Positions 37,284 to 50,240 of a stretch of 64,000 bases of DNA are shown piece by piece (position 1 is the stretch's first letter; each line of letters opens with the position of its first letter). A program made the translations under genes and the position numbers. Source of the stretch: Rikenellaceae bacterium (lineage in GTDB: Bacteria; Bacteroidota; Bacteroidia; Bacteroidales; Rikenellaceae); assembly GCA_047178865.1 (NCBI GenBank), contig JBCQSY010000006.1, forward strand, positions 6,065 to 70,064, written 5' to 3'. The notes beneath the pieces were generated by a model. That model searched no databases and was not told the origin of the DNA. It saw nothing but the letters and a program-made list of their open reading frames with translations.

Positions 37284-37800
37284 TTTTCAGGAGTAAAAAA
37301 TCACACTTTTTATCAAAGAACTACTCAACTACCTCTGCTACATTCTATTACATAGAAGTGACTTTTTTACTCACCACCAACTTTACAGTTTGTTAGCTAT
37401 TAGTAGTTGAAATCGGGTGCAAATATAGGATAGTTATTTGAATAAAAAAAGATATTGGCTACTTTTTTTCACTAAAAAGCAAAAAAAAGTCTACTTACAG
37501 CCACACCTATATATATAAATATTAGGGCATCTTCTAAAACATCACCCAAAACACTCCCCAATAGCTAGCTAACATACGCACTTGGTTACAGCAAAAAGAG
37601 CATCTAATCAATCTCCACCATAGACTAAACAACAACACAAATAGTAAAAAATTTTAAAGATATATTTACTCCTTATACCTACATATAGCTATAAACAGTT
37701 ACTAACTCCGCTACAACCCCTTTAAAATACCCATTTTTAGCTATTGTTCATACCCACTATCTGGGATAACTTTGCAGGAGAAATAATCAAAGAGAAAAAT

Positions 37801-39150
37801 ATGAAAAAAATTTTACTATTATCCCTCTGTTTTGTTGTGCTCACAACTCAAGCACAAACTCAAGAGGATTACAAACTACTACTCGAAAGAGTCGAGGCGA
37901 TGGAGCAGTTGCTCTCTGAGAACCAAGAGGAGTCTAAGAGTGAAGAGCTTAAAGAGTCGATAGACAAAAAGTCACGTCTAACATTTGGTGGTTATGGTGA
38001 GATTACCATGAGTCGCCACTTCTACAGCGACAACTACAAGCGTTACTCAGCCCCAGCATACTACGCCGACGACGAGGGTTACGGACGAGTAGATATTCCA
38101 CATGCGGTATTCTTCGTGGGTTACGATTTTGGTAAAGGCTGGTCATTCGGAACAGAGATTGAGTTCGAACATGGTGGATTAGAGGTCGCCGTAGAGTTGG
38201 AGCAGGAGGAGAATGGTGAATACGAGACCGAGGTTGAGAATGGTGGAGAGATTATCCTCGAACAGTTCTGGATTAATAAGGAGTGGAGCAAGGCTATGAA
38301 TCTAAAGATGGGACACATAGTTCTACCAGTTGGTCAGACCAACAAGTATCACATGCCAAATGAGTACTTCGGGGTATTCCGCCCTGAGGGTGAGTCGACA
38401 ATTATCCCATGTACTTGGCACGAGACGGGCGTTAGTTTCTGGGGTAGTGCTGGCGATTGGTCTTACGAGGCGATGTTTGTTGCAGGATTAGATGCTGAGC
38501 GTTTTGATAGTTGGGGATGGGTCGCTTCGAGTGCTGGTTCACCCTACGAGTTCACCATATCTAACACCTATGCAGGAGCTTTCCGTGTCGATAATCACAG
38601 CGTCAAGAACCTTACGTTAAGCGTGAGTGGATATTACGGACATAGTGCATCAAACTCACTGAAAGATAAATACTCGGAGGATATCAGCGGAGCGGTGAAA
38701 ATCATCTCTTTCGATGGAGTCTATCGCTCGAATATAGTGGTTGCAAGGGCTAACGTGCTCTACGGACACCTCAGCGATTCGGACGTTATCACCACTGGAA
38801 ACAAAAGTTCTGGTACATCATCTATGTCGTCGGGACTACCCGTTGCTGAGAGTGCATTGACCTATGGCGCAGAGGTTGGTTACAATATTCTATCACCATT
38901 CAAAAGAGCCGAGAGCCAGAGCCTATTCCTATTTGGTCGCTACGAGTTCTACGACTCGATGTACACCGTAGCCGAAGGTGTAACAACCAAGGGTTACTAC
39001 TCACGTAACTGTGTGTCGGGCGGTGTTAACTATAGCCCAATACCTGCAATCACAATCAAGGCGGAGTACCAAAGCCGTATGTTCTCAGCACCTTACAATA
39101 CCGAGAACACCGTGATGATTGGTTTCACCTACACAGGTCTATTTAGATAG
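37801..39150 (+). CDS. Outer-membrane porin-like beta-barrel with N-terminal coiled coil
   Basis: Signal peptide, heptad-like DYKLLLERVEAMEQLL, FGTEIEFEHGG, LEQFW, GRYEFYD, terminal IGFTYTGLF. TAACTTTG -7 box at 37767-37774 lies inside the longer ORF call, so start moved to ATG 37801. Confidence 0.8.
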   Translation: MKKILLLSLCFVVLTTQAQTQEDYKLLLERVEAMEQLLSENQEESKSEELKESIDKKSRLTFGGYGEITMSRHFYSDNYKRYSAPAYYADDEGYGRVDIPHAVFFVGYDFGKGWSFGTEIEFEHGGLEVAVELEQEENGEYETEVENGGEIILEQFWINKEWSKAMNLKMGHIVLPVGQTNKYHMPNEYFGVFRPEGESTIIPCTWHETGVSFWGSAGDWSYEAMFVAGLDAERFDSWGWVASSAGSPYEFTISNTYAGAFRVDNHSVKNLTLSVSGYYGHSASNSLKDKYSEDISGAVKIISFDGVYRSNIVVARANVLYGHLSDSDVITTGNKSSGTSSMSSGLPVAESALTYGAEVGYNILSPFKRAESQSLFLFGRYEFYDSMYTVAEGVTTKGYYSRNCVSGGVNYSPIPAITIKAEYQSRMFSAPYNTENTVMIGFTYTGLFR

Positions 39151-39186
39151 CACACATATTATTTATTAACATATAAAAAAACAGTT

Positions 39187-40449
39187 ATGAAAAATTTATT
39201 CAATTTAGTTATCACCGCTTGCGCTACAGCAACATTGGCTCTAGCAGGTGCATGTTCAACAAACGACGCAGATGCGGGAAACTTCTTCCTCTTCGAGGCT
39301 AGTGGCGACGTTGATGGAGTAGATGTTCTTGAGTCTTACGCTAAGGATGTCGTTATCACACGCTACGAGAATCTTGCTGACAAAGCTCAGGCTCTCTACC
39401 ACGCAACTCAGGAGATTACTTTTGGTGCATCGGATGAGTCTACTAAAATCGCTGCTGCCGCTGCTGCATGGGTTGAGGCTCGTTTGGCATGGGAGCGTAC
39501 TGAGGCTTACCTATTTGGTCCAGTAGACCTCTACAAAATCGACCCAGGTATCGACTCTTGGCCTTTGGCTCTTGCCGACCTTGCAGTCTTTATGACAGGT
39601 TACGCTGCAGGAACATACTCAGACTACCACATCGCAAATGATAATGGTGAGAGAAAAGGTTTCCACGCAGTTGAGTTCCTTCTATTCGAGGATGGCAACT
39701 CTAAGAAGGCTCTTACTGACTTCAACAGCGCAGAGATCTCTTCATCTTATGGATTGAGCAGCGTTGCAGGAGCTGATGTTCAGAAGTATCTAGTAGCTAT
39801 CGCAAAGGAGCTATACTACAACACAGTTCTTTTGGTTGCCGAGTGGGAGGATATCGACGCAGTAGCTTCATACGAGGCAGCTGATGCACTTAGCGTTAAG
39901 ACTAACAATGGTGGTGGTTACTACGACGACTTCACAACAGCTGGCGACGACGAGAGCTCTTACTCATCTATCTCTGATGCACTTAGCGTAATCCTTGAGA
40001 ACGCAGCAGGTATCGCCGAAGAGGTTGGTGATGTTAAAATCTCAGACCCATACACTTCAAAAGATGTTCTTGATGTAGAGTCTTGGTTTAGCTGGAACTC
40101 AGTTTATGACTTCACCGACAATATTATCGGTATCAAGGAGGCATACTACGGAAAACTTTACAGCGGTCTATCTGACGACTACACTGCAACAGCTTTCGGA
40201 AGTGCAGCAGCTAACTCAATCAGTGCTTATGTAGCATCTGGTAGCTCAAATTTGGACACTCTAGTAAAAGAGGCTATCGAGGAGGCTATCGAGAAGGTGG
40301 CAGCTCTACCTTATCCATTCAGAAGCTACCTTAGCGATTCGAGCAAATCAGCTGATATCGAGGCTGCAATGGATGCTTGTCTAGAGTTGGTTGACGCACT
40401 AGCTATGGCACAGAGTGCTGTAAACGATGGTTACTATATAACTGAGTAA
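39187..40449 (+). CDS. Imelysin (peptidase M75 / IrpA-like) lipoprotein
   Basis: Lipobox LAGAC; AWVEARLAWERTEAYLFGP, IDSWP, GFHAVEFLLF (GxHxxE), EVGDVKISDP, ESWFSWNS. Confidence 0.9.
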   Translation: MKNLFNLVITACATATLALAGACSTNDADAGNFFLFEASGDVDGVDVLESYAKDVVITRYENLADKAQALYHATQEITFGASDESTKIAAAAAAWVEARLAWERTEAYLFGPVDLYKIDPGIDSWPLALADLAVFMTGYAAGTYSDYHIANDNGERKGFHAVEFLLFEDGNSKKALTDFNSAEISSSYGLSSVAGADVQKYLVAIAKELYYNTVLLVAEWEDIDAVASYEAADALSVKTNNGGGYYDDFTTAGDDESSYSSISDALSVILENAAGIAEEVGDVKISDPYTSKDVLDVESWFSWNSVYDFTDNIIGIKEAYYGKLYSGLSDDYTATAFGSAAANSISAYVASGSSNLDTLVKEAIEEAIEKVAALPYPFRSYLSDSSKSADIEAAMDACLELVDALAMAQSAVNDGYYITE

Positions 40450-40475
40450 CACACAACACAATAACTACAAAAAAA

Positions 40476-42257
40476 ATGAGAAAAGTTTTAAACACAAAAC
40501 TCTCTCTACTTATCATAGCTACATCTCTTCTTGGAGCATGTAGCTATGATACGTCGTTGAGTGAAGAGGAGTTATTAGAGCAGGAGCTTAATCCACTTGG
40601 ATTGGCGGATGAGTACTTCACAGGAGGACTTATGGGAACAACAACAATTAATGGAGTGTTCTGTTTCGAACAGGCGACATATTCAGTCTCGTCGATGGGA
40701 TTGGATAGTGATTTCCTACATGGAGAGGCGTTCTTCGAGGATTACTTCTCCTCAGAGAGAAACGAAGGTTACCCAATGTCGGGACGTGGACCTCTATACA
40801 TTCGTGAATCATGTATTGGTTGCCACCCAGGCTACGGACATGGTAAACGTATGGGAAACCTCGGTGAGGATGTAACATTCGACACCTCGAATAGCGGAAA
40901 TGGATATCTTCTAGTTGTCTACAATAGTGGTGCTGATAAAGACTTTGGTGATGCATCAAGCACAATTACTGATGGTCGTATCGATGGCCCAACTTGGACA
41001 GATGCAACATCTGATAACGCCTATGTTGCCGAGCTTACTGGTATGCCACAGACAAGGAGCGCAACTCCATTCCCAGAGCCAATTGACGAGAGCCAAATCC
41101 AAATCAAATGGGTGAAGTATGTCGACGAGCATGATAATAAGTATAGCGATGGCGAGAGCTACGAGTTGATATACCCCGAAGTTACAATCCCATCGGATGC
41201 TATCTATGGAGTCAACTCAGGTTACTTCGACAACCTCAACAGCGAATCGAAGTATGAGGTTCGCCTAGAGGCAACTATCGGAATCTACGGAACTGGTCTT
41301 ATCGATGCTATCACCGAGGAGGATATCGACGCTGAGTCTGAGGCTCAAGCAGATAAGTCATGGGGAGGTCGTCGTGGTGCATCAATCACACAGCTCGATG
41401 GTTCAACTCGCAAGGGTCGTTACACCTATGGTCTAACACGTGGTACATTGCAACATGGCCCTGGTTCAAACGCACTATGGAACATCACAAACGTCACTCG
41501 TGAGACATCCAACAAGCTATATCGTAGCAACTACGTCACTGCTGCCTATGCTAATGCAGTGTGTGAGGATGTTGATGTTATGACCTCACTTATGAACGAT
41601 AGCCACTACGGCGAGTTCTTGGTGAGCGATGACGACCCATCATCGACCGCCTCGAAGAATGAGGTCTACAACTACTTGTTATGGAACAATGCATATCCAA
41701 CCGAGAAGCTAACCTCGACTACCTACCTCGACCATCTCGACGATGCAACACAGCGTGATGCAGAGCTTGATTTGGACTCTTACACTCAGTTTATGGTGTG
41801 GCATCGTGGTTTGGCTGTTCCTTCAGCTCGTAATATCGACGATGAAGATTTTATCCGCGGTAAAGAGCTATTCTATAGCGAAGAGTTAGCTTGTACGGCG
41901 TGTCACCGTCCATCATGGACAACAGGCTCGGATGATTATGTTGGTGATGCGGATATGGCGGGTAAACTTCCGAAGTATCCAAACCAGAAAATTTGGCCTT
42001 ACTCTGACTTCCTACAGCACAACTTGGGAATGGTTAACAATATCCGCACAGGGTGGTGTCGTACCACTCCACTATGGGGTCGCTACCTCAACTTGGTAGC
42101 TAATGGCGAGAGTAGCCACCTTCACGACATGCGTGCTCGTGACTACTACGAGGCGATAATGTGGCACAATGGTCAAGCTAAATACTCTAGTGATGCATTT
42201 AGAGAGCTTATCAAGAGTGATCGCGACGCAGTGGTTAAATTCCTGAAGTCTATCTAA
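40476..42257 (+). CDS. Di-haem oxidoreductase (DHOR/DUF1111-type) c-type cytochrome lipoprotein
   Basis: Lipobox LLGAC; two haem-binding motifs CIGCH and CTACH; IYGTGLIDAI, PYSDFLQHNLG, RTTPLWG, LHDMRAR, EAIMWH. Confidence 0.9.
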   Translation: MRKVLNTKLSLLIIATSLLGACSYDTSLSEEELLEQELNPLGLADEYFTGGLMGTTTINGVFCFEQATYSVSSMGLDSDFLHGEAFFEDYFSSERNEGYPMSGRGPLYIRESCIGCHPGYGHGKRMGNLGEDVTFDTSNSGNGYLLVVYNSGADKDFGDASSTITDGRIDGPTWTDATSDNAYVAELTGMPQTRSATPFPEPIDESQIQIKWVKYVDEHDNKYSDGESYELIYPEVTIPSDAIYGVNSGYFDNLNSESKYEVRLEATIGIYGTGLIDAITEEDIDAESEAQADKSWGGRRGASITQLDGSTRKGRYTYGLTRGTLQHGPGSNALWNITNVTRETSNKLYRSNYVTAAYANAVCEDVDVMTSLMNDSHYGEFLVSDDDPSSTASKNEVYNYLLWNNAYPTEKLTSTTYLDHLDDATQRDAELDLDSYTQFMVWHRGLAVPSARNIDDEDFIRGKELFYSEELACTACHRPSWTTGSDDYVGDADMAGKLPKYPNQKIWPYSDFLQHNLGMVNNIRTGWCRTTPLWGRYLNLVANGESSHLHDMRARDYYEAIMWHNGQAKYSSDAFRELIKSDRDAVVKFLKSI

Positions 42258-42308: not shown

Positions 42309-42392
42309 CGTCATTGCGGACTTGATCCGCAATCTCATAATAAGCAGATAATCAATACTGTTTAGAGATTGCGGATCAAGTCCGCAATGACG
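42309..42392. repeat. Inverted dimer of a CGTC-tagged palindromic (REP-like) unit
   Basis: 42309-42336 CGTCATTGCGGACTTGATCCGCAATCTC is the exact reverse complement of 42365-42392; each arm is itself ATTGCGGA-CTTGA-TCCGCAAT; 28-nt spacer. Confidence 0.9.
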
Positions 42393-42571
42393 TATATGGG
42401 TAAGAGTTATCCTTAATAGTCATCCTTTTTGTTTTATAATAGTGTCATAGATAGCCTATACTGTGAAAATTATAGTTCCATTGAATAAACCCATATTTTT
42501 ATAGAATTGGCGTTGTTTTTTCGTTAAAATAGTTAATCTTTGTAGTAGAAAAAAACTATTAAAGAGTTAAT

Positions 42572-43321
42572 ATGAGCCACTTAAGTAGTATAATATCTAA
42601 GTTTCAAGGCATCTCTCTGGGTGAGATGGACGAAGTGAAATTGATGAATAGAACCGATAAAAAGTATTGGTTTTGTCAAGATATGCTCACCCCAATTTTA
42701 GAGGATATCGCTCAAGATTACTTTATTCTAGAGGTCAGCGGTGAGCGTAACCTACCCTACTCCACTACATACTACGACACCGAAAGTAATGAGATGTTCC
42801 AAAACCACCATCGTGGCAAACTCAATCGTTACAAGATACGTCGTCGCAACTACATCTCCACGCAGAGTAGTTTTCTGGAGGTTAAATTCAAAAGCAACAA
42901 AGGTCGAACCATCAAGACCCGACAGACATGTGACTACAACATCAGCGGATTTAGCGATTCGGAGCGAGAATTTATTGCAAAAAACACACCCTATTCATGT
43001 GATAAACTACGCAAGGTTTTAGAGAATAGATTCTACCGTTTGATGTTGGTGAGTCGGAGTATGGATGAGCGTTGCACTATCGACAGCTCGCTGAGTTTTA
43101 GTGGTGAAGGTGGCTCATCGAGCCTTGATAATATGGTTATCGTCGAGGTAAAAAGAGATGGAAAGAGCCCAAGCAGAATCATTGATGCGCTCAATGCTCG
43201 ACGCATTAAACCCTCAGGATTTAGCAAATACTGCATCTGTCGCAGCTATATCGACCAGGGATTAAAGAGGAATAATTTCAAAGGCAAGCTCCGTGAAATA
43301 GGGCGGAAAACAGGTAACTAA
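42572..43321 (+). CDS. VTC (polyphosphate polymerase) domain protein, CYTH-like
   Basis: LMNRTDKKY, TTYYDT, RYKIRRRNY, FLEVKFK, RCTIDSSL, IVEVK, FSKYC; no TM segment. Confidence 0.88.
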   Translation: MSHLSSIISKFQGISLGEMDEVKLMNRTDKKYWFCQDMLTPILEDIAQDYFILEVSGERNLPYSTTYYDTESNEMFQNHHRGKLNRYKIRRRNYISTQSSFLEVKFKSNKGRTIKTRQTCDYNISGFSDSEREFIAKNTPYSCDKLRKVLENRFYRLMLVSRSMDERCTIDSSLSFSGEGGSSSLDNMVIVEVKRDGKSPSRIIDALNARRIKPSGFSKYCICRSYIDQGLKRNNFKGKLREIGRKTGN

Positions 43322-43335
43322 AATATGTACAAATT

Positions 43336-44007
43336 ATGATTGAATGGATGGAGTCTCTCCGTTTTCTGGGGATTAGACTTATTGATTTTGAGGACTTTTT
43401 CGAGTTGATTTTTAGATTTCTACTCAACACTGGTATGCTGCTGCTGATAGTTAGGTTTCCATATCTAAAACATAGCGAGAGCCGCAACTATACCTTTAGC
43501 TTCTTGGCTGTAGGAACAACCGTGTTCCTACTCTGTTTCCTACTCAACAGCGTTAAATTAGAGCTAGGTTTTGCACTGGGTCTATTCGCTATATTTGGAA
43601 TAATCCGCTATCGCACCGATGCTATACCCTTCAAACAGATGACATACCTCTTTGTGGTGATTGGACTCTCGGTGATGAATGCACTCGCCAACAAGAAAGT
43701 TAGCTACACCGAGATACTATTCACCAACTGTGTCATTATCGCTGGATTGTGGCTACTTGAGAAGTTCCTCAATCGTCGCAATGAGGCCTCGATGAGGATT
43801 ATCTACGAAGATATCTCAAAGGTCAATATCGAGAAGTATGACGAACTTCTCGAAGATTTAAGAGCACGCACAGGCTTTGATATACACCACTTCCAGATTC
43901 AGAAGATAGACTATCTACGTGATGTGGCGAGCATTATGATATATTTCCACTGCAACGACAACAACCACTTCGTTGCGGATAACAGACCAGAAGAAGAGGA
44001 GGAGTAG
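43336..44007 (+). CDS. DUF4956 family membrane protein
   Basis: LGFALGLFAIFGIIRYRT, MTYLFVVIGLSVMNAL; several TM helices plus soluble C-terminal domain (IDYLRD). Confidence 0.88.
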   Translation: MIEWMESLRFLGIRLIDFEDFFELIFRFLLNTGMLLLIVRFPYLKHSESRNYTFSFLAVGTTVFLLCFLLNSVKLELGFALGLFAIFGIIRYRTDAIPFKQMTYLFVVIGLSVMNALANKKVSYTEILFTNCVIIAGLWLLEKFLNRRNEASMRIIYEDISKVNIEKYDELLEDLRARTGFDIHHFQIQKIDYLRDVASIMIYFHCNDNNHFVADNRPEEEEE

Positions 44008-44010
44008 TAG

Positions 44011-44703
44011 ATGAGTTTCAAAAGATTAATTCTAACAGCTGCATTACTTATAAGCAGCATTGCAGCAGCCTTTGCCGATGGGACAAAGGATGATGTCGAG
44101 GTGCTCTATAAGTATCAATTCTCAGCCGAGGTTGAGTATAAGATAATCAAGGGGTTGAGTGTCAATTTCAGCCCAGAGTTGCGATTTTGTGAGGGGTATG
44201 ACAAGCTACTTCTCAACGCAGGTGTAGAGTATAAGATGTTTGGATGTATCCACCTAGGGGCTACATATCGCCTAGATGTCGATAGAGTCGAAGGCTCTGG
44301 CAGCTCATACTCGATGTCGGGATTTGGTAATAACTACGATTCGGAGGTGTCGCATCGCTACGCTTTTGATGTGACATATAAGGAGAAATTCGGGCGTTTC
44401 ACTCCATCATTTAGGGTGAGGTACAACAACTTCACCGACGAGGATATCGACGATAAGGAGTTTCTGCGCTATCGTGCAAAGGTCGATTACAACATCCGCA
44501 AGTGTAAAATCACACCATACCTATCAGTTGAGGCGTACCAAGATTTAACAGAGAATCTGCTCTACAAAATGCGCTACGCCACAGGATTTGATTTCGATAT
44601 GAACAAAAAATCAGCCATCTCGCTAGATTACAAATTTGACTTCTACTGCTTGGAGTATAAGAATGCAAATATCTTTAGCGTTGGTTATAAATATAAATTC
44701 TAG
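44011..44703 (+). CDS. Small outer-membrane beta-barrel (DUF2490-like)
   Basis: Signal peptide, alternating beta strands, LRYRAKVDY, PYLSVE, C-terminal GYKYKF. Confidence 0.78.
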   Translation: MSFKRLILTAALLISSIAAAFADGTKDDVEVLYKYQFSAEVEYKIIKGLSVNFSPELRFCEGYDKLLLNAGVEYKMFGCIHLGATYRLDVDRVEGSGSSYSMSGFGNNYDSEVSHRYAFDVTYKEKFGRFTPSFRVRYNNFTDEDIDDKEFLRYRAKVDYNIRKCKITPYLSVEAYQDLTENLLYKMRYATGFDFDMNKKSAISLDYKFDFYCLEYKNANIFSVGYKYKF

Positions 44704-44705
44704 TT

Positions 44706-46133
44706 ATGAACTCAAAAATTATCACTTTCGCAGCACTATTAATAGCCATTACGGTGGTTAGCTCATGTCGTAATGATGAGTATATATATTGGGATATCTA
44801 CTGGGACAACGACGATGAAGAGTACGACCCTTCGCTGGTAGACACGGAGACATTCCCCGACTGGACGGAGCTAACACATAGCAATGCAGCAGCTCCAGAT
44901 TACAACACTGTTTTCGAGCAGAATAAAGTGCTACGACTCGACCTTACAATCAGCTCGTCGAACTGGAGTTCAATGCTCTCGGATTTGAGTAGCAACATCT
45001 CGTCGGGCAACAATATGATGGGCGGAAATAATATGGATAGCGACCTAGGATTTACTCCCGTGTGGAAATCATGTACTGTCACCTTCAACGACACCGATTG
45101 GTATAAGGTGGGTGTGAGATTCAAGGGTAATTCGAGCCTGAGCACAACATACTCTTCGGGAAATCGAAAACTCTCTCTGAAGTTGAGTTTCGATAAGTAT
45201 GAGGATGACTACCCAGCCCTAACCAACCAACGTTTCTATGGATTCAAGCAGCTCAACCTCAACAACAACTACAACGACGAGTCGTTGATGAGAGAGAAGA
45301 TTGGTACAGAGCTATTCCGCAGCTTTGGCATTGCAGCGCCTCAGACCTCTTTCTGTGAGGTATATATCGACAAGGGTTCGGGAGCGGAGTACTTCGGACT
45401 ATACACGATAGTCGAGGAGGTGGACGACACGCTTATCGACGACACGGAGTGGTTCAGCGATGGAGGAGGTAACCTCTACAAACCCGAAGATGATGCCGCT
45501 TCGTTCAAATCAGGAACATACGACACCAGCGAATTTAACCTCAAAACCAACCTCACCTCACCCGACTATAGCGACGTAAAAGCTCTCTACGATGCTCTAC
45601 ACAGCTCTAATCGAACCTCAAATCAGAGTGATTGGTGTGAAGGAGTAGAGAGTGCGTTCGATGTCGAGACCTTCCTTAAGTGGTTGGCTGCAAATACTAC
45701 TATTCAGAATTGGGACACCTACGGCAATATGACACACAACTACTTCCTCTACAACTATAACGGGCTGTTGACGTGGATTCCGTGGGATAATAACGAGGCA
45801 TTTCAGAGTGGCAATGATGCCATCGAGGTTGATGAAATGAGTATCGTAGGCTACTCGTGGCCACTGATAAAGTACCTCTTCGATGTCGAGGAGTATGAGC
45901 AGATGTATAAAGATTACCTGCGCGAATTTATCAACGAGGTATTCATCACAGCTGATATGCAGAGCCTCTACACAAGCTACTACAACCTGCTCCTCGACTC
46001 GGCAAGTCGCGAGGAGAGTGGCAAAACATTCTTCGATTCGTCAAGCCCAAGTACGGAATTTAGCAGCGCAGTGTCGACCCTTAAGAGTCATGTGGTGAGC
46101 AGAACAACGGTTGTAAACAACTATTTAGATTAA
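44706..46133 (+). CDS. CotH-family protein kinase, lipoprotein
   Basis: Lipobox VVSSC; VRFKGNSS, LSLKLSFD, LNLNN, MREK, GLYTIVEEVD, NWDTY, HNYFLY, IPWDNNEAF. Confidence 0.88.
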   Translation: MNSKIITFAALLIAITVVSSCRNDEYIYWDIYWDNDDEEYDPSLVDTETFPDWTELTHSNAAAPDYNTVFEQNKVLRLDLTISSSNWSSMLSDLSSNISSGNNMMGGNNMDSDLGFTPVWKSCTVTFNDTDWYKVGVRFKGNSSLSTTYSSGNRKLSLKLSFDKYEDDYPALTNQRFYGFKQLNLNNNYNDESLMREKIGTELFRSFGIAAPQTSFCEVYIDKGSGAEYFGLYTIVEEVDDTLIDDTEWFSDGGGNLYKPEDDAASFKSGTYDTSEFNLKTNLTSPDYSDVKALYDALHSSNRTSNQSDWCEGVESAFDVETFLKWLAANTTIQNWDTYGNMTHNYFLYNYNGLLTWIPWDNNEAFQSGNDAIEVDEMSIVGYSWPLIKYLFDVEEYEQMYKDYLREFINEVFITADMQSLYTSYYNLLLDSASREESGKTFFDSSSPSTEFSSAVSTLKSHVVSRTTVVNNYLD

Positions 46134-46311
46134 GAATCCTATTTTACTAATAGAACCACTATTAGCTGCGATACCAAAATTAAAAAGCAAAATAGGACAT
46201 AGCATATTTAAGCAGAAAAACTTAAACAGATTCTAAAAGGTCTCTTTAACAACATTGAATTTTTGTGTGTTTAGTGAGAAAAATATAAATAAAAAAGGTA
46301 TCTTTGCAGTG

Positions 46312-47517
46312 ATGATACATGAAAGAAAAATATTAGCCATTGAGTTTATAGTAGTAATCCTGCTATGGATATTCGTGATTATCACTCCGCTGCTATTGGT
46401 TGATGACTTCGACCAGGATTGGATAACTGTTCATATTATGTGGGCGGAGTATGCTGTTGTGGGTTTTGCATTCCTGCTCAATAGGCTTGTCTTGATGCCA
46501 CGCCTTTTTTTCGCTAAAAAGTATATTAAATATGCCCTATCACTAGCGACATTATTTCTACTTCTAGGGCTATTTGTTATACGCTTTGATGGAATTAACA
46601 AGACCCTCTCACTCTTTGGCATAGAGGCGGTTGATCCTCAATCACCTCGCGCAATGGATGGAAATACCCCCAGGCCACTATCATATAGAGATGAAATTGC
46701 TCGCAGAGATGAATATCCTCGATACGAGGATGACTCTCTTCGAGATGGAGAGTATTCACGACCACCTCGCCGAAGAGGAGTTATGCGTCCAACTTCATCT
46801 CCTCACTCACTCTCAATCTTTCCACCATCATTCTCGTTACTATTCCTTGCGATGATTGTTATCGCTCTGGATATGGGTCTGAGTATCGCCGTGAAGTGGT
46901 TGATATCGGAGCAGAAACAGGCTCACAGTGAGAAAGAGAGGGTCTCAGCACAGCTCTCGAACCTTCAGAGTCAGGTGAGTCCCCACTTCTTTATGAACAC
47001 GCTGAACAATATCCACGCGCTGGTCGATTTGGACTCTAAGCGTGCCAAGCAGACCATTATCGAGCTATCAAGTTTGATGGATTATCTGCTCTACGACAGC
47101 TCGACACAAGAGAGCGTATCGCTACAGAAAGAGTTGGATTTTATCTGTAGCTACGTCAACTTGATGCGTCTGAGATACTCCAACACGGTGAATATAGAGC
47201 TTATATATGGCAATAATGTACCAGTGGTTCAAGTGCCACCGCTACTATTTTTGAACTTTATCGAGAACTCGTTTAAGTATGGAATAGATTATGAACACGA
47301 CTCATTCATCAAGATTGAGTTCGACTTCAACGAGAAATTTATCGAGATGAGAGCTAAAAACAGCAACCATTCGAAACTAGTTAATAGCCAACGACATGGA
47401 TTGGGCATAAGCAATGCTTGCAAACGACTAGAGCTACTATATGGGGATAACTACACCCTCGATATAGATGAAAAAGAGAGTACATTTAATGTAAACCTAA
47501 AAATACCAACACTATGA
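46312..47517 (+). CDS. LytS/YehU-type sensor histidine kinase
   Basis: N-terminal TM helices; LQSQVSPHFFMNTLNNI, PPLLFLNFIENSFKYG, GLGISN. TATCTTTG at 46299-46306 argues for a start at ATG 46312. Confidence 0.92.
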   Translation: MIHERKILAIEFIVVILLWIFVIITPLLLVDDFDQDWITVHIMWAEYAVVGFAFLLNRLVLMPRLFFAKKYIKYALSLATLFLLLGLFVIRFDGINKTLSLFGIEAVDPQSPRAMDGNTPRPLSYRDEIARRDEYPRYEDDSLRDGEYSRPPRRRGVMRPTSSPHSLSIFPPSFSLLFLAMIVIALDMGLSIAVKWLISEQKQAHSEKERVSAQLSNLQSQVSPHFFMNTLNNIHALVDLDSKRAKQTIIELSSLMDYLLYDSSTQESVSLQKELDFICSYVNLMRLRYSNTVNIELIYGNNVPVVQVPPLLFLNFIENSFKYGIDYEHDSFIKIEFDFNEKFIEMRAKNSNHSKLVNSQRHGLGISNACKRLELLYGDNYTLDIDEKESTFNVNLKIPTL

Positions 47518-48221
47518 TAAGCTGTATAGTTATTGACGATGAGCCACTAGCGCTACAACAGATTGAGCAATATGTCACAGATACGCCCCTGCTAGAGCTA
47601 CGCGGGAGCTTTAATTCAACCACCAAAGCATTGGAATATCTACGTGAGAATAGCGTGGATTTACTCTTTGTTGATATCAATATGCCACGTATTTCGGGAT
47701 TGGAGTTTGTCGATGCTCTACCCTTTGATGTTAAGGTTATATTCGTCACTGCCTACCGTGAGTACGCCCTCGAAGGGTTCTCGTTAGATGCTGCGGACTA
47801 TCTGCTAAAACCGCTCTCGTATGCCGCTTTTCTAAAGTCGGTTGAGAAGGTCAACAGCCGCTACTTTAATAGAGCACCTGACGATAAGAGTGATAGAGAG
47901 TACACATTCCTCCGCTCGGCTAATCGCACCGTGAGGGTCAACTTCTACGAAATACTCTATATCGAGTCGAAGCGTGAATATCTCGATATAGTACTCTCTA
48001 CAGGGGATATTGTTACGGTACATGGCTCACTAAATAGCATCCTCGAAAAGCTACCGCAGGATAGATTCCTCAAGGTTCACCGCTCGTTTATTGTCAACTT
48101 AGACAAAGTGAAGATATTGGAGCGTAACTCTATAGTATTCGAAAAGTTATATATCCCGATAAACGAGCAAGCCAAAGAGCATCTAATGAACTTTATCAAC
48201 AACGCAACTAAAATAGGCTAG
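47514..48221 (+). CDS. LytTR-family response regulator
   Basis: VIDDEP, LFVDINMP, FVTAY, YLLKP, FLKVHRSFIVN; ATGA overlap with the kinase. Confidence 0.94.
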   Translation: MISCIVIDDEPLALQQIEQYVTDTPLLELRGSFNSTTKALEYLRENSVDLLFVDINMPRISGLEFVDALPFDVKVIFVTAYREYALEGFSLDAADYLLKPLSYAAFLKSVEKVNSRYFNRAPDDKSDREYTFLRSANRTVRVNFYEILYIESKREYLDIVLSTGDIVTVHGSLNSILEKLPQDRFLKVHRSFIVNLDKVKILERNSIVFEKLYIPINEQAKEHLMNFINNATKIG

Positions 48222-48305
48222 GAGAGAGGGTTTAAAAGATATATTGGGTAACAGTTGTTTTTGTTAGAAATTATCCCTAACATTGTACTTCTAAAACCTA
48301 AACTT

Positions 48306-50240
48306 ATGAAATTAAACCTTTGCAAATCTATTTTGCTACTATTGTCACTCGCTATCTCTAGCTGTAGCTCAACAAAAGATAGCGGGTTAGATATTGCTCA
48401 ATATCTCTCTTTAGCAACCTCGGAGGATAGTATCTATCCCTCTGCGGAGCAGATTGCCCTGCTCGAAGAGTTTATCCCAGAGAGCACCTACACCCCAGCC
48501 CCAGCTATCTCGAACAGAGAGTATTGGGAGAAAATTGCTGCATCTCAGGCGGGTAAGGACGAAGTGGCAAATGCACTAGCTGTGCTCGACGAGAAACCGA
48601 CAATTCCTATCTCTGACGAGATTTATCGCCAAGCAAATGCAGAGGGTAATCGTGGACTCTATAAGACACGTTACTACACCTCGATGGCTCGATTAGAGAG
48701 CTATCTTCTAGCGGAGTGTATCCAGAATCAAGGGGTTTTTATCCCACAAATTGAGACCTACACCAGAGCTATCCTCGATATGAAGTCTTGGTTGCACCCC
48801 AATCATGACGATGATGATAATGGAGTGTTAGAGGGTCGTCGTGTATCTATCGACCTGGGAGCTAGGAAGTTTGGTTCGGTGTTGACGCTAGTAAATCTAC
48901 TTTTAGAGGATAAAATCTCGACAGAACTACGTGATGAGATTTCGACTCAGGTGCGTTGGCGTATTATCGAGTCATATCTTAATAGCTGTTCCGGAGAGGA
49001 TAAGAGTGTTAGCAACGACTGGCTAAGAAAGGTAAACAACTGGAACTCAGTCTGTACGAGTGGTGCAATCTTCACAACTATCGCAAATAGCGAGGATAGA
49101 GACGAGCGCATCGCAGCTATCGGTTGCGCACTAAATGGTATGAGATACTACCTCACAGGATTTGGTGAGGATGGCTACTGCTCCGAAGGTTTTGGATATT
49201 GGAATTATGGATTTGGACACTACCTATACCTTGCACATATCCTCTCGGAGTACACCAATGGAGCTATCGACCTATTCACCTTCGACAACCCTGAGAAGTT
49301 GGTTAAAGTGGCTCACTTCCCACAAAAATATGAGATACAGAATAGCTTATGCTCTGCCTTCTCGGATGGTTCATTTAGGATGCCTAAGGAGGATGGCGAC
49401 AACTTCGCCTCGGTGATGTGTGCCAAATATTATGGCACTCCAAAGCCCAAAAAGTTCAACCCCGACCAGGCGGTGCTAACCATTATCGGATGGGATATAG
49501 CTCCTAAATACACCGACCCTAACGCAGTCGAGGCTGAGCTACCTGAATATAGCTACTTCGACAAGTATGGAATTGTGATATCTCGTGGCAAACAAGATGT
49601 TCCATTCTCGGTTGCTATCAAGTCGGGACACAACGCTGAGAACCATAACCACTGCGATGTTGGTAGCTACTACATCCTGCTAGGTAGTGATAGGGTCGCA
49701 GGAGATATTGGCTCACCTGTCTATATCGGTCACACCCCATCTATTATCCACCCTGCACGTAACTCATGGGGACACCCAGTGCCACGTATCAACGATACGC
49801 TCCAATCAATCGGTCGTGAGTTTAAGGGTACGATAACTAAAACGGAGTTTATCGATGGTCGTGATTTTGTTGAGATGGAGCTAAAGGAGGCGTACGAGAT
49901 TCCTTCGATTCAGAGCCTAACACGCACACTCACCAACGACAAATCGGGCAGTGGCAAGATTACCGTTGTCGACAAATTTGTCGCTGATGAGGCTCTGATT
50001 TTTGGCACTGCGGTGATGGTTAACACCAAGTACGAAATTAAGGGTGAGACAATTTATATCTACACCGACAACCATAAAATCAGAGTCGATATCACCGCAA
50101 ATGGAGCGCCTATCAAAATCAAAGATGAGGAGGTCTTGGCTCGCATGAGTAGTGGCAAGGTGTCGTATAGAATAGGTATCGACTTCACTCAACCTCTCAA
50201 AGAGGGCTCTATCGAGGTGACATACACCCCTGAATTATAG
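48306..50240 (+). CDS. Heparinase II/III-like (polysaccharide lyase-related) lipoprotein
   Basis: Lipobox ISSC; IDLG, NNWNSVC, DGYCSEGFGYWNYG, GHNAENHNHCDVGSY, WGHPVP. Start moved to ATG 48306. Confidence 0.78.
   Translation: MKLNLCKSILLLLSLAISSCSSTKDSGLDIAQYLSLATSEDSIYPSAEQIALLEEFIPESTYTPAPAISNREYWEKIAASQAGKDEVANALAVLDEKPTIPISDEIYRQANAEGNRGLYKTRYYTSMARLESYLLAECIQNQGVFIPQIETYTRAILDMKSWLHPNHDDDDNGVLEGRRVSIDLGARKFGSVLTLVNLLLEDKISTELRDEISTQVRWRIIESYLNSCSGEDKSVSNDWLRKVNNWNSVCTSGAIFTTIANSEDRDERIAAIGCALNGMRYYLTGFGEDGYCSEGFGYWNYGFGHYLYLAHILSEYTNGAIDLFTFDNPEKLVKVAHFPQKYEIQNSLCSAFSDGSFRMPKEDGDNFASVMCAKYYGTPKPKKFNPDQAVLTIIGWDIAPKYTDPNAVEAELPEYSYFDKYGIVISRGKQDVPFSVAIKSGHNAENHNHCDVGSYYILLGSDRVAGDIGSPVYIGHTPSIIHPARNSWGHPVPRINDTLQSIGREFKGTITKTEFIDGRDFVEMELKEAYEIPSIQSLTRTLTNDKSGSGKITVVDKFVADEALIFGTAVMVNTKYEIKGETIYIYTDNHKIRVDITANGAPIKIKDEEVLARMSSGKVSYRIGIDFTQPLKEGSIEVTYTPEL

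Follow-up and report, generated by a model that had tools for sequence, protein, structure and literature searches.

Polyphosphate (polyP) synthesis of the VTC type is usually treated as a eukaryotic invention, and a 2023 review of polyP evolution deals with VTC as eukaryotic, leaving prokaryotic homologues unmentioned. In bacteria, Gram-positive pel loci have been reported to include cotH, polyP-polymerase-domain and DUF4956 as accessory genes (Whitfield et al., bioRxiv 10.1101/768473), and SIR_1592-1594 of Streptococcus intermedius represent the same accessory set (bioRxiv 10.1101/2024.04.20.589940). In this study we analysed a stretch of 64,000 nucleotides (nt) from a Rikenellaceae bacterium (assembly GCA_047178865.1, contig JBCQSY010000006.1), hereafter called the window, in which a VTC-domain gene is followed by genes encoding DUF4956, DUF2490 and CotH-family proteins. 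This module carries the VTC domain in a prokaryote; by analogy with the yeast complex it may perform polyP synthesis plus export, a reading that we hold tentatively and at somewhat less than an even chance. The four open reading frames (ORFs) are co-directional on the plus strand of the window, with intergenic gaps of 14, 3 and 2 nt:

42572-43321, + strand: VTC-domain protein, 249 aa (PF09359, E 2e-25)
43336-44007, + strand: DUF4956 inner-membrane protein, 223 aa (PF16316, E 2e-46)
44011-44703, + strand: DUF2490 outer-membrane beta-barrel, 230 aa (PF10677, E 7e-16)
44706-46133, + strand: CotH-family kinase lipoprotein, 475 aa (PF08757, E 3.5e-65)

These ORF coordinates agree with the gaps given in a preliminary description of the locus, and the four Pfam families that it had named were all recovered with scores far exceeding the curated gathering thresholds. 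No NCBIfam model matches any of the four proteins, and none of them has a match at E≤0.01 in the PADLOC defence library. The genome (1.88 Mb in 58 contigs) holds one copy of each gene, and because of their tight spacing the four genes are probably co-transcribed.

Like the Gram-positive pel accessory set, the window locus groups VTC, DUF4956 and CotH as one set, with an exported CotH protein that retains its catalytic residues. It differs from that set in belonging to a diderm, in having a dedicated outer-membrane barrel and the gene order VTC-DUF4956-(barrel)-CotH, and in that its CotH is a lipoprotein and not a secreted FN3-tailed protein. Contiguity with pelDEA(DA)FG was not found: in the window the locus is flanked on one side by an imelysin/di-haem operon and on the other by genes for a LytS/LytTR pair and a heparinase-like lipoprotein. 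The VTC/DUF4956 pair had been called uncharacterised in the preliminary description, which stands as regards function; the trio itself was already in print beside the Gram-positive pel operons.

A conserved module across the envelope

To define the conservation of the locus, named genomes, one per species, were scanned with a VTC profile, which yielded 80 loci; the ratios below refer to those with enough flanking sequence. Most of these loci belong to Bacteroidales and Marinilabiliales, and others were found in Runella, Saprospiraceae, Lentisphaeria, Marinisomatota and Caldithrix. Dozens of genera share the gene order of the window, among them members of Bacteroidales, Marinilabiliales, Cytophagales, Lentisphaeria, Marinisomatota and Caldithrix: DUF4956 lies directly 3' of VTC in 75 of 77 loci, DUF2490 comes next after DUF4956 in 71 of 77, and CotH comes next after DUF2490 in 47 of 69 and is located elsewhere in the locus in 4 more. 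Spacing is tight throughout, with median intergenic gaps of 6, 1 and 10 nt in the 80 loci.

The distribution of the four families was then determined in an even sample of the phylum (251 genomes) and in 14 control genomes, in contrasts that ignore phylogeny. Among the 251 genomes, VTC was found in 38, DUF4956 in 77, DUF2490 in 88 and CotH in 102. DUF4956 is present in all 38 VTC genomes, as is CotH, which occurs in 64 of the 213 others; CotH likewise accompanies DUF4956 (74 of 77 genomes, versus 28 of the 174 lacking it). In the controls, VTC and DUF4956 both match the same three genomes, those of Bacteroides thetaiotaomicron, Corynebacterium glutamicum and Methanosarcina acetivorans, and all three carry CotH. 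The DUF4956 and DUF2490 genes of B. thetaiotaomicron are adjacent (BT3498-99). Absence of co-occurrence across genomes, which the preliminary description had named as a refuting outcome, is thereby clearly contradicted: VTC, DUF4956 and CotH are nested and their order is conserved, but DUF2490 characterizes one subtype only and CotH is adjacent in about 70% of loci.

The assignment of the four products to successive compartments, also proposed earlier, agrees with our analysis, which predicts a soluble VTC protein, a five-helix DUF4956 protein, a barrel with a signal peptide and a terminal Phe, and a CotH protein with a lipobox. Taken together, these results indicate that the four genes form a genuine module, which is conserved and distributed over the compartments of the envelope.

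The four proteins, variant loci and fusions

The VTC protein scores 90 bits against PF09359 (cut-off 23), and no other family matches at E≤0.01. It is a single-domain protein in which Pfam finds VTC only, at residues 26-224, and it has no hydrophobic segment, SPX domain or membrane domain. The single sequence and a 24-sequence profile gave no match in the PDB; a profile of 72 orthologues was required, and this profile matched Vtc4/Vtc2 chains only (3G3Q, E 1.6e-7) and no other tunnel enzyme. Residues R27, K31, R90, R92, E103, K105 and K115 of the window protein correspond to Vtc4 R196, K200, R264, R266, E279, K281 and K294, and R117, R156, R167, E192, K194, S218 and K219 correspond to Vtc4 R296, R361, R373, E426, K428, S457 and K458. 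The C-terminal positions were mapped from a local alignment with checked numbering; a global hmmalign alignment broke on the large Vtc4 insertion. Every mapped catalytic or tunnel residue of Vtc4 is identical in the window protein, and most are invariant across the 72 orthologues. Substitution of three of them (R264A/R266A/E426N) gives the catalytically dead yeast VTC, the form used for the structure determined by cryo-electron microscopy (PMC9911596). The preliminary description had left room for a CYTH-type enzyme that only hydrolyses triphosphates; the profile is Vtc4-like and not generic CYTH, and K200, R264, R266, K281, R361, R373, E426, S457 and K458 are kept. The protein is thus a candidate polyP polymerase, a putative triphosphate-tunnel enzyme of the Vtc4 type that, from its family membership, is predicted to fold as a closed beta-barrel tunnel.

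The structural model of DUF4956 (pLDDT 81) has helices at residues 18-43, 51-72, 76-93, 99-117 and 124-146, followed by a C-terminal beta-alpha-beta-beta domain at 150-205 with a weak likeness to ACT-type domains in the fold search. The best-conserved stretch is a glycine-rich helix that ends in the invariant R91-Y92-R93-T94 motif. The positive-inside rule predicts that the N terminus is outside and the C terminus inside, so that both this motif and the C-terminal domain would face the cytoplasm. Two candidate relatives of DUF4956 were rejected: the membrane domains of Vtc1/Vtc4, for lack of a fold match in the PDB, and MgtC (PF02308), for which profile comparison with hhalign gave a probability of 1.2%. 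PF02308 has no match in the window genome and gives two sub-threshold matches on other DUF4956 genes. The split VTC proposed earlier, in which DUF4956 would be the channel half, is accordingly not upheld: with no fold match to a Vtc1/Vtc4 membrane domain, a channel role for DUF4956 is by analogy only, and we regard the protein as a candidate translocation partner of the VTC enzyme.

The DUF2490 protein scores 58.8 bits (Pfam cut-off 29.8), and its model (pLDDT 92) consists of a signal helix and a barrel of about 12 strands; the C terminus is ...YKYKF, the final residue being Phe. The best fold matches after normalization for size are NanC, KdgM and 12-stranded autotransporter barrels, with TM scores of about 0.45-0.55 (0.48/0.53 to NanC, 0.43/0.56 to KdgM, and similar values to the autotransporter barrels); no match of DUF2490 to NanC or KdgM was found at the sequence level. 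Of the conserved residues that face the lumen, about 11 are Arg or Lys versus about 5 Asp or Glu. VTC-linked copies of DUF2490 score 45-66 bits, compared with 100-185 bits for unlinked paralogues, so that by sequence the former are best described as a divergent subfamily of a broad, paralogue-rich family.

The CotH protein scores 221 bits against PF08757 and aligns with Bacillus cereus CotH (5JD9, E 4.5e-15). Its N terminus reads MNSKIITFAALLIAITVVSS-C21, a lipobox (VSS-C21) that is followed by a conserved acidic stretch. C21, D337, N345 and D361 are invariant in 49 syntenic orthologues, which confirms that the motifs first described as intact-looking are conserved. D337 and D361, 24 residues apart, correspond to D228 (catalytic) and D251 (metal-binding) of the Bacillus subtilis protein, both of which are essential (PMC7821199). 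Long CotH paralogues in related loci carry Lamin-tail and type IX secretion system (T9SS) sorting domains, and from these tails and the invariant lipobox cysteine the protein appears to be extracytoplasmic. It is probably exposed at the surface, the acidic stretch after Cys21 presumably resembling Bacteroidetes surface-export signals.

A beta-helix lipoprotein of the Cthe_2159 family (PF14262, about 580 aa) is encoded in 14 loci, either after CotH or in its place directly after DUF2490; examples lie approximately +2.2 to +3.7 kb from the VTC start (L015, L018, L022, L025, L039, L046, L050, L056, L059, L061 and L063). It may represent an alternative extracytoplasmic end component. Separately, a small periplasmic protein (about 135 aa), which combines a signal peptide with an LTxxQ-like motif, is encoded near the cluster in 16 of the 80 loci (e.g., L016:8815-9225); it is Spy/CpxP-like by eye and has no Pfam match.

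A second subtype of the module lacks DUF2490. In the 24 such loci, which come from other classes of the phylum, an HlyD-type adaptor gene stands beside VTC-DUF4956 in 21: a divergent HlyD-family adaptor immediately 5' of VTC in 18, and a clearer HlyD protein 3' of DUF4956 in 3 more. The divergent adaptor has a transmembrane helix, a coiled coil and a lipoyl-type motif, and 6 of its 17 members match HlyD_3. The presence of an adaptor beside VTC-DUF4956 implies that the pair would be the inner-membrane part of an envelope-spanning exporter. At one locus, an outer-membrane protein with a match just above threshold to Porin_O_P (phosphate-selective porin O/P) occupies the DUF4956-CotH slot; this is a single case, and with Porin_O_P present in 136 of the 251 genomes adjacency statistics are uninformative. 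A relationship between DUF2490 and the porin in that slot was rejected (hhalign 9%). In the large family f28, a DUF4956-like gene without VTC is followed by adaptor-like and TolC-like genes, matches that are below the Pfam thresholds and serve as a hint only.

Two natural fusion proteins with VTC at the N terminus and DUF4956 at the C terminus were found (P0121 and P0122), one of them inside a VTC::DUF4956-DUF2490-...-CotH cluster. Because one junction is direct and the other has a 45-aa linker, the two fusions appear to be independent events, and their existence argues for physical coupling of VTC and DUF4956. Together with the replacement of the barrel by HlyD-type adaptors, they lend independent support to the trans-envelope idea.

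Further observations were made at variant loci. A 778-aa 'fused VTC' in the high-GC locus L090 proved to be an over-extended ORF overlapping the adaptor gene and was discarded. The fusion locus L140 encodes a secreted arylsulfotransferase (PF05935, 10244-11698) and fragments with T9SS tails between DUF2490 and CotH; its many short fragments raise the suspicion of an indel-prone assembly. At L082:7419-9871 and L083:7387-10158, in two genomes that have no VTC gene, DUF4956 is followed by a secreted protein of about 350 aa and by a secreted enzyme resembling purple acid phosphatase (Metallophos plus Pur_ac_phosph_N), the latter providing another link between DUF4956 and extracytoplasmic phosphate chemistry. 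At L088:7772-9667 (minus strand), the gene for a signal-peptide protein with PPDK_N (pyruvate-phosphate-dikinase AMP/ATP-binding domain) converges on a DUF4956 gene that has no VTC; for an ATP-grasp-type enzyme to be exported is itself odd.

Genomic surroundings of the window locus

The elements that flank the four genes are the following:

42309-42392: REP-like (repetitive extragenic palindromic) palindrome, 84 nt, separating the VTC operon from the upstream imelysin/di-haem operon
42393-42571, + strand: putative operon promoter/leader region, assigned from sequence
46255-47517, + strand: LytS-type sensor histidine kinase (PF06580, E 6e-23)
47514-48221, + strand: LytTR-family response regulator (PF00072 and PF04397), overlapping the kinase gene by 4 nt

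Within the putative leader, a near-consensus Bacteroidetes -7-like box, TAATCTTTG, is located at 42534-42542; a generic sigma-70 promoter scan of the leader gave a result at chance level. A 315-nt gap, inside which the palindrome lies, parts the VTC operon from the operon upstream on the same strand. The palindrome is perfect and has at least 10 full-length copies in the genome with 87-99% identity (contigs C1, C9, C13, C14, C15 and C44), and its 28-nt arm occurs in dozens of copies, often in tandem arrays (C8:23699-23954; C24, C43 and C53); it is a genome-wide REP-like or MITE-like (miniature inverted-repeat transposable element) repeat. The upstream operon (37744-42257) encodes a barrel-like outer-membrane protein without Pfam match, an imelysin lipoprotein (PF09375) and a di-haem oxidoreductase (PF06537), and looks like an iron-uptake set. 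It is not conserved beside the VTC cluster in the 80 related loci.

Downstream, 121 nt separate CotH from the LytS-type kinase ORF. The Bacteroidetes -7 box TATCTTTG at 46299-46306 lies just 5' of an ATG at 46312, which is probably the true start of the kinase gene, in place of the TTG at 46255. The membrane domain of the kinase includes a long R-, D-, E-, P- and Y-rich loop (ORF residues approximately 125-185). Genes for a LytS-type kinase and a LytTR regulator lie within 10 kb of the cluster in 28 of the 50 loci with full flanks. Beyond the two-component pair, 48255-50240 encodes a 661-aa lipoprotein whose C-terminal match to heparinase II/III is weak (19 bits, below the cut-off); it is an unclassified candidate polysaccharide-active enzyme.

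The window genome also carries an adjacent ppk1-ppx pair and lacks PPK2. As PPK1 and PPX are present, the VTC enzyme would be a second, specialised one that is not needed for bulk cytoplasmic polyP. The nearest relatives of the VTC protein are from metagenome-assembled genomes labelled Rikenellaceae (at most 68% identity), and the sequence is present in four fish-gut metagenome DNA runs.

Proposed export of polyphosphate and comparison with known systems

The data support a functional unit built on an obligate pair at the inner membrane, the VTC enzyme and DUF4956; to this pair are added a third component, which reaches across the periplasm or the outer membrane, and, as the usual beneficiary, an exported CotH protein. 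In the mechanism that we propose as the most economical, the cytoplasmic VTC enzyme would transfer the gamma-phosphate of nucleoside triphosphates to a phosphate chain, either polyP or a short oligophosphate. Docked on DUF4956, it would pass the chain into the periplasm during synthesis, in a manner analogous, not homologous, to the yeast VTC polymerase-translocase, and the small basic-lined DUF2490 barrel would offer the polyanion a passage through the outer membrane. At the far end, the lipid-anchored CotH protein might take the exported phosphoanhydride as its phosphoryl source, or modify a surface structure decorated by the polymer; that CotH uses polyP as phosphoryl donor is pure inference and seems unlikely to us. 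We know of no CotH-fold kinase that uses polyP. The operon would probably be regulated by the LytS/LytTR pair.

Several points weigh against this export reading. CotH is missing from approximately 30% of otherwise complete loci, where the Cthe_2159 lipoprotein is sometimes present instead, one locus keeps DUF4956-DUF2490-CotH without VTC, and the co-occurrence statistics are uncorrected for phylogeny. When the DUF4956 model was compared with the PDB by fold, nothing was found at E<0.05 and no yeast VTC membrane chain was among the matches; the fold matches of the DUF2490 barrel are generic, with TM scores of about 0.5. Both fusions come from metagenome assemblies, in which a lost stop codon is possible, and one of the contigs looks indel-prone. 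For the CotH kinases investigated to date, the phosphoryl donor is ATP (PMC7821199). In the only published deletion mutants, those of S. intermedius, loss of the VTC or CotH homologue affected neither aggregation nor Pel, and the DUF4956 mutant alone showed a small change in aggregation (bioRxiv 10.1101/2024.04.20.589940). Our literature search found no paper that tests any member of the bacterial VTC module or proposes an export mechanism, and a search with B. thetaiotaomicron locus tags returned one iron transcriptome only, in which the change was non-significant.

The main rival is a regulatory or homeostatic module, in which an MgtC-like DUF4956 would sense a ligand through its ACT-like domain and tether the VTC enzyme while the turnover of polyP or triphosphate stays in the cytoplasm, tuning phosphate or energy status or signalling envelope stress, the barrel and CotH being merely co-regulated. 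The five helices and ACT-like domain of DUF4956, which have been likened to MgtC, speak for this explanation and against export, as does the suggestion of the same authors that polyP remains cytoplasmic in S. intermedius, where among the mutants only that of DUF4956 had a phenotype (bioRxiv 10.1101/2024.04.20.589940); the two sub-threshold matches of the MgtC Pfam model to DUF4956 genes point the same way. However, profile-profile comparison of DUF4956 and MgtC gives a probability of about 1%, PPK1 and PPX already serve cytoplasmic polyP in the window genome, and two features are left unexplained, namely the conduit part (barrel or HlyD adaptor) that is always beside the pair and the exported CotH found in every VTC genome. 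We consider the regulatory explanation unlikely. It is somewhat less likely still that the exported carrier is other than long polyP, such as ATP/GTP or pyrophosphate/triphosphate (PPi/PPPi), destined for an ATP-type CotH or for metal handling. Characterised CotH kinases use ATP, tunnel enzymes of the VTC superfamily bind nucleotides and triphosphates, and a 12-strand barrel or a Porin_O_P-type porin would let small phosphate anions through as easily as a polymer; yet the residues that distinguish the polymerase Vtc4, K200 included, are all conserved. The inactive subunits Vtc2/3 reportedly lack K200, and we know of no nucleotide exporter of this architecture.

Another explanation attributes to the module the modification of a surface polymer: VTC would phosphorylate a lipid-linked, protein or glycan acceptor, DUF4956 would flip or export it, and CotH and Cthe_2159 would act at the surface, for example on a phosphorylated or polyP-capped exopolysaccharide or matrix. 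The attachment of the VTC/DUF4956/CotH trio to Gram-positive pel exopolysaccharide operons and the recurrence of the carbohydrate-binding Cthe_2159 lipoprotein, sometimes in the place of CotH, are consistent with such a role, but the cluster has no glycosyltransferase or polysaccharide genes at its flanks in the window, nor do such genes recur in the 80 related loci, and Pel production is independent of these genes in S. intermedius (bioRxiv 10.1101/2024.04.20.589940); we judge this role improbable. That the four genes are functionally unrelated and neighbours by chance is hardly credible and is effectively refuted by the nested phyletic pattern and by an order and spacing that are shared across dozens of genera and a number of phyla.

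Returning to polyP export, a broader form of this reading would hold that bacteria and archaea possess a PPK-independent, export-coupled polyP synthase made of VTC and DUF4956, with DUF2490 or HlyD/TolC-type ducts, whose polymer fuels extracytoplasmic CotH kinases. Taken as a whole, we find this generalisation quite improbable; if true, it would account both for phosphorylation in places devoid of ATP and for the source of the extracellular polyP of bacteria. Extracellular polyP from bacteria is documented (PMC10653871, PMC12026824). A Vtc4-like enzyme together with a membrane protein and conduit parts makes a concrete candidate for a polyP export route, and the association with CotH offers a testable answer to how exported kinases could work outside the cytoplasm. 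To our knowledge no export route for bacterial polyP has been described. B. thetaiotaomicron, which has all four families, is a tractable gut commensal for testing. If the export reading fails, the module would still be among the more widespread conserved gene sets of unassigned function.

The window module shares features with several known systems. As in the yeast VTC complex (3G3Q, 7YTJ, 8I6V), the catalytic domain belongs to PF09359 and has the mapped tunnel and catalytic residues, and the enzyme family is obligatorily paired, and sometimes fused, with a small multi-helix membrane protein. Unlike yeast VTC, however, the bacterial enzyme has neither an SPX sensor nor a membrane domain of its own, and its partner DUF4956 is unrelated in fold to the three-helix subunits of the Vtc1 type. 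The proposed target is the envelope or exterior, not the vacuole, with additional outer-membrane and kinase components, and regulation is probably exerted by LytS/LytTR and not by inositol pyrophosphates. With the Bacillus spore-coat kinase CotH (5JD9/5JDA), the window CotH shares the Pfam family and the conserved catalytic and metal-binding Asp residues. The Bacillus enzyme has CotB and CotG as its targets and works in the cytoplasm of the mother cell, with ATP at hand, whereas the window protein is attached by a lipid anchor outside the cytoplasm, in a diderm that forms no spores, and no gene for a CotB/CotG-like Ser-rich substrate was found near it.

Small anion-specific channels of the outer membrane include the 12-strand anionic-sugar porins NanC and KdgM and the phosphate and pyrophosphate porins OprO and OprP. 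Set beside them, the DUF2490 model is the size of a monomer, with about 12 strands and a lumen in which many basic residues are conserved; no sequence relationship is detectable and the likeness in fold is generic. With tripartite exporters (inner-membrane transporter, HlyD and TolC), the module has in common the HlyD-type adaptor that its DUF2490-less relatives keep, but the window has no adaptor, no TolC gene and no ABC, RND or MFS pump, leaving the VTC enzyme as sole candidate energiser. What is new here is a diderm subtype with a dedicated DUF2490 barrel and near-perfect synteny, together with the alternation of barrel and adaptor, the frequent LytS/LytTR and Cthe_2159 partners, and the presence of ppk1-ppx alongside. 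Compared with these systems, the module is best regarded as a putative analogue of the VTC polymerase-translocase that is bacterial and split and has a non-homologous candidate channel.

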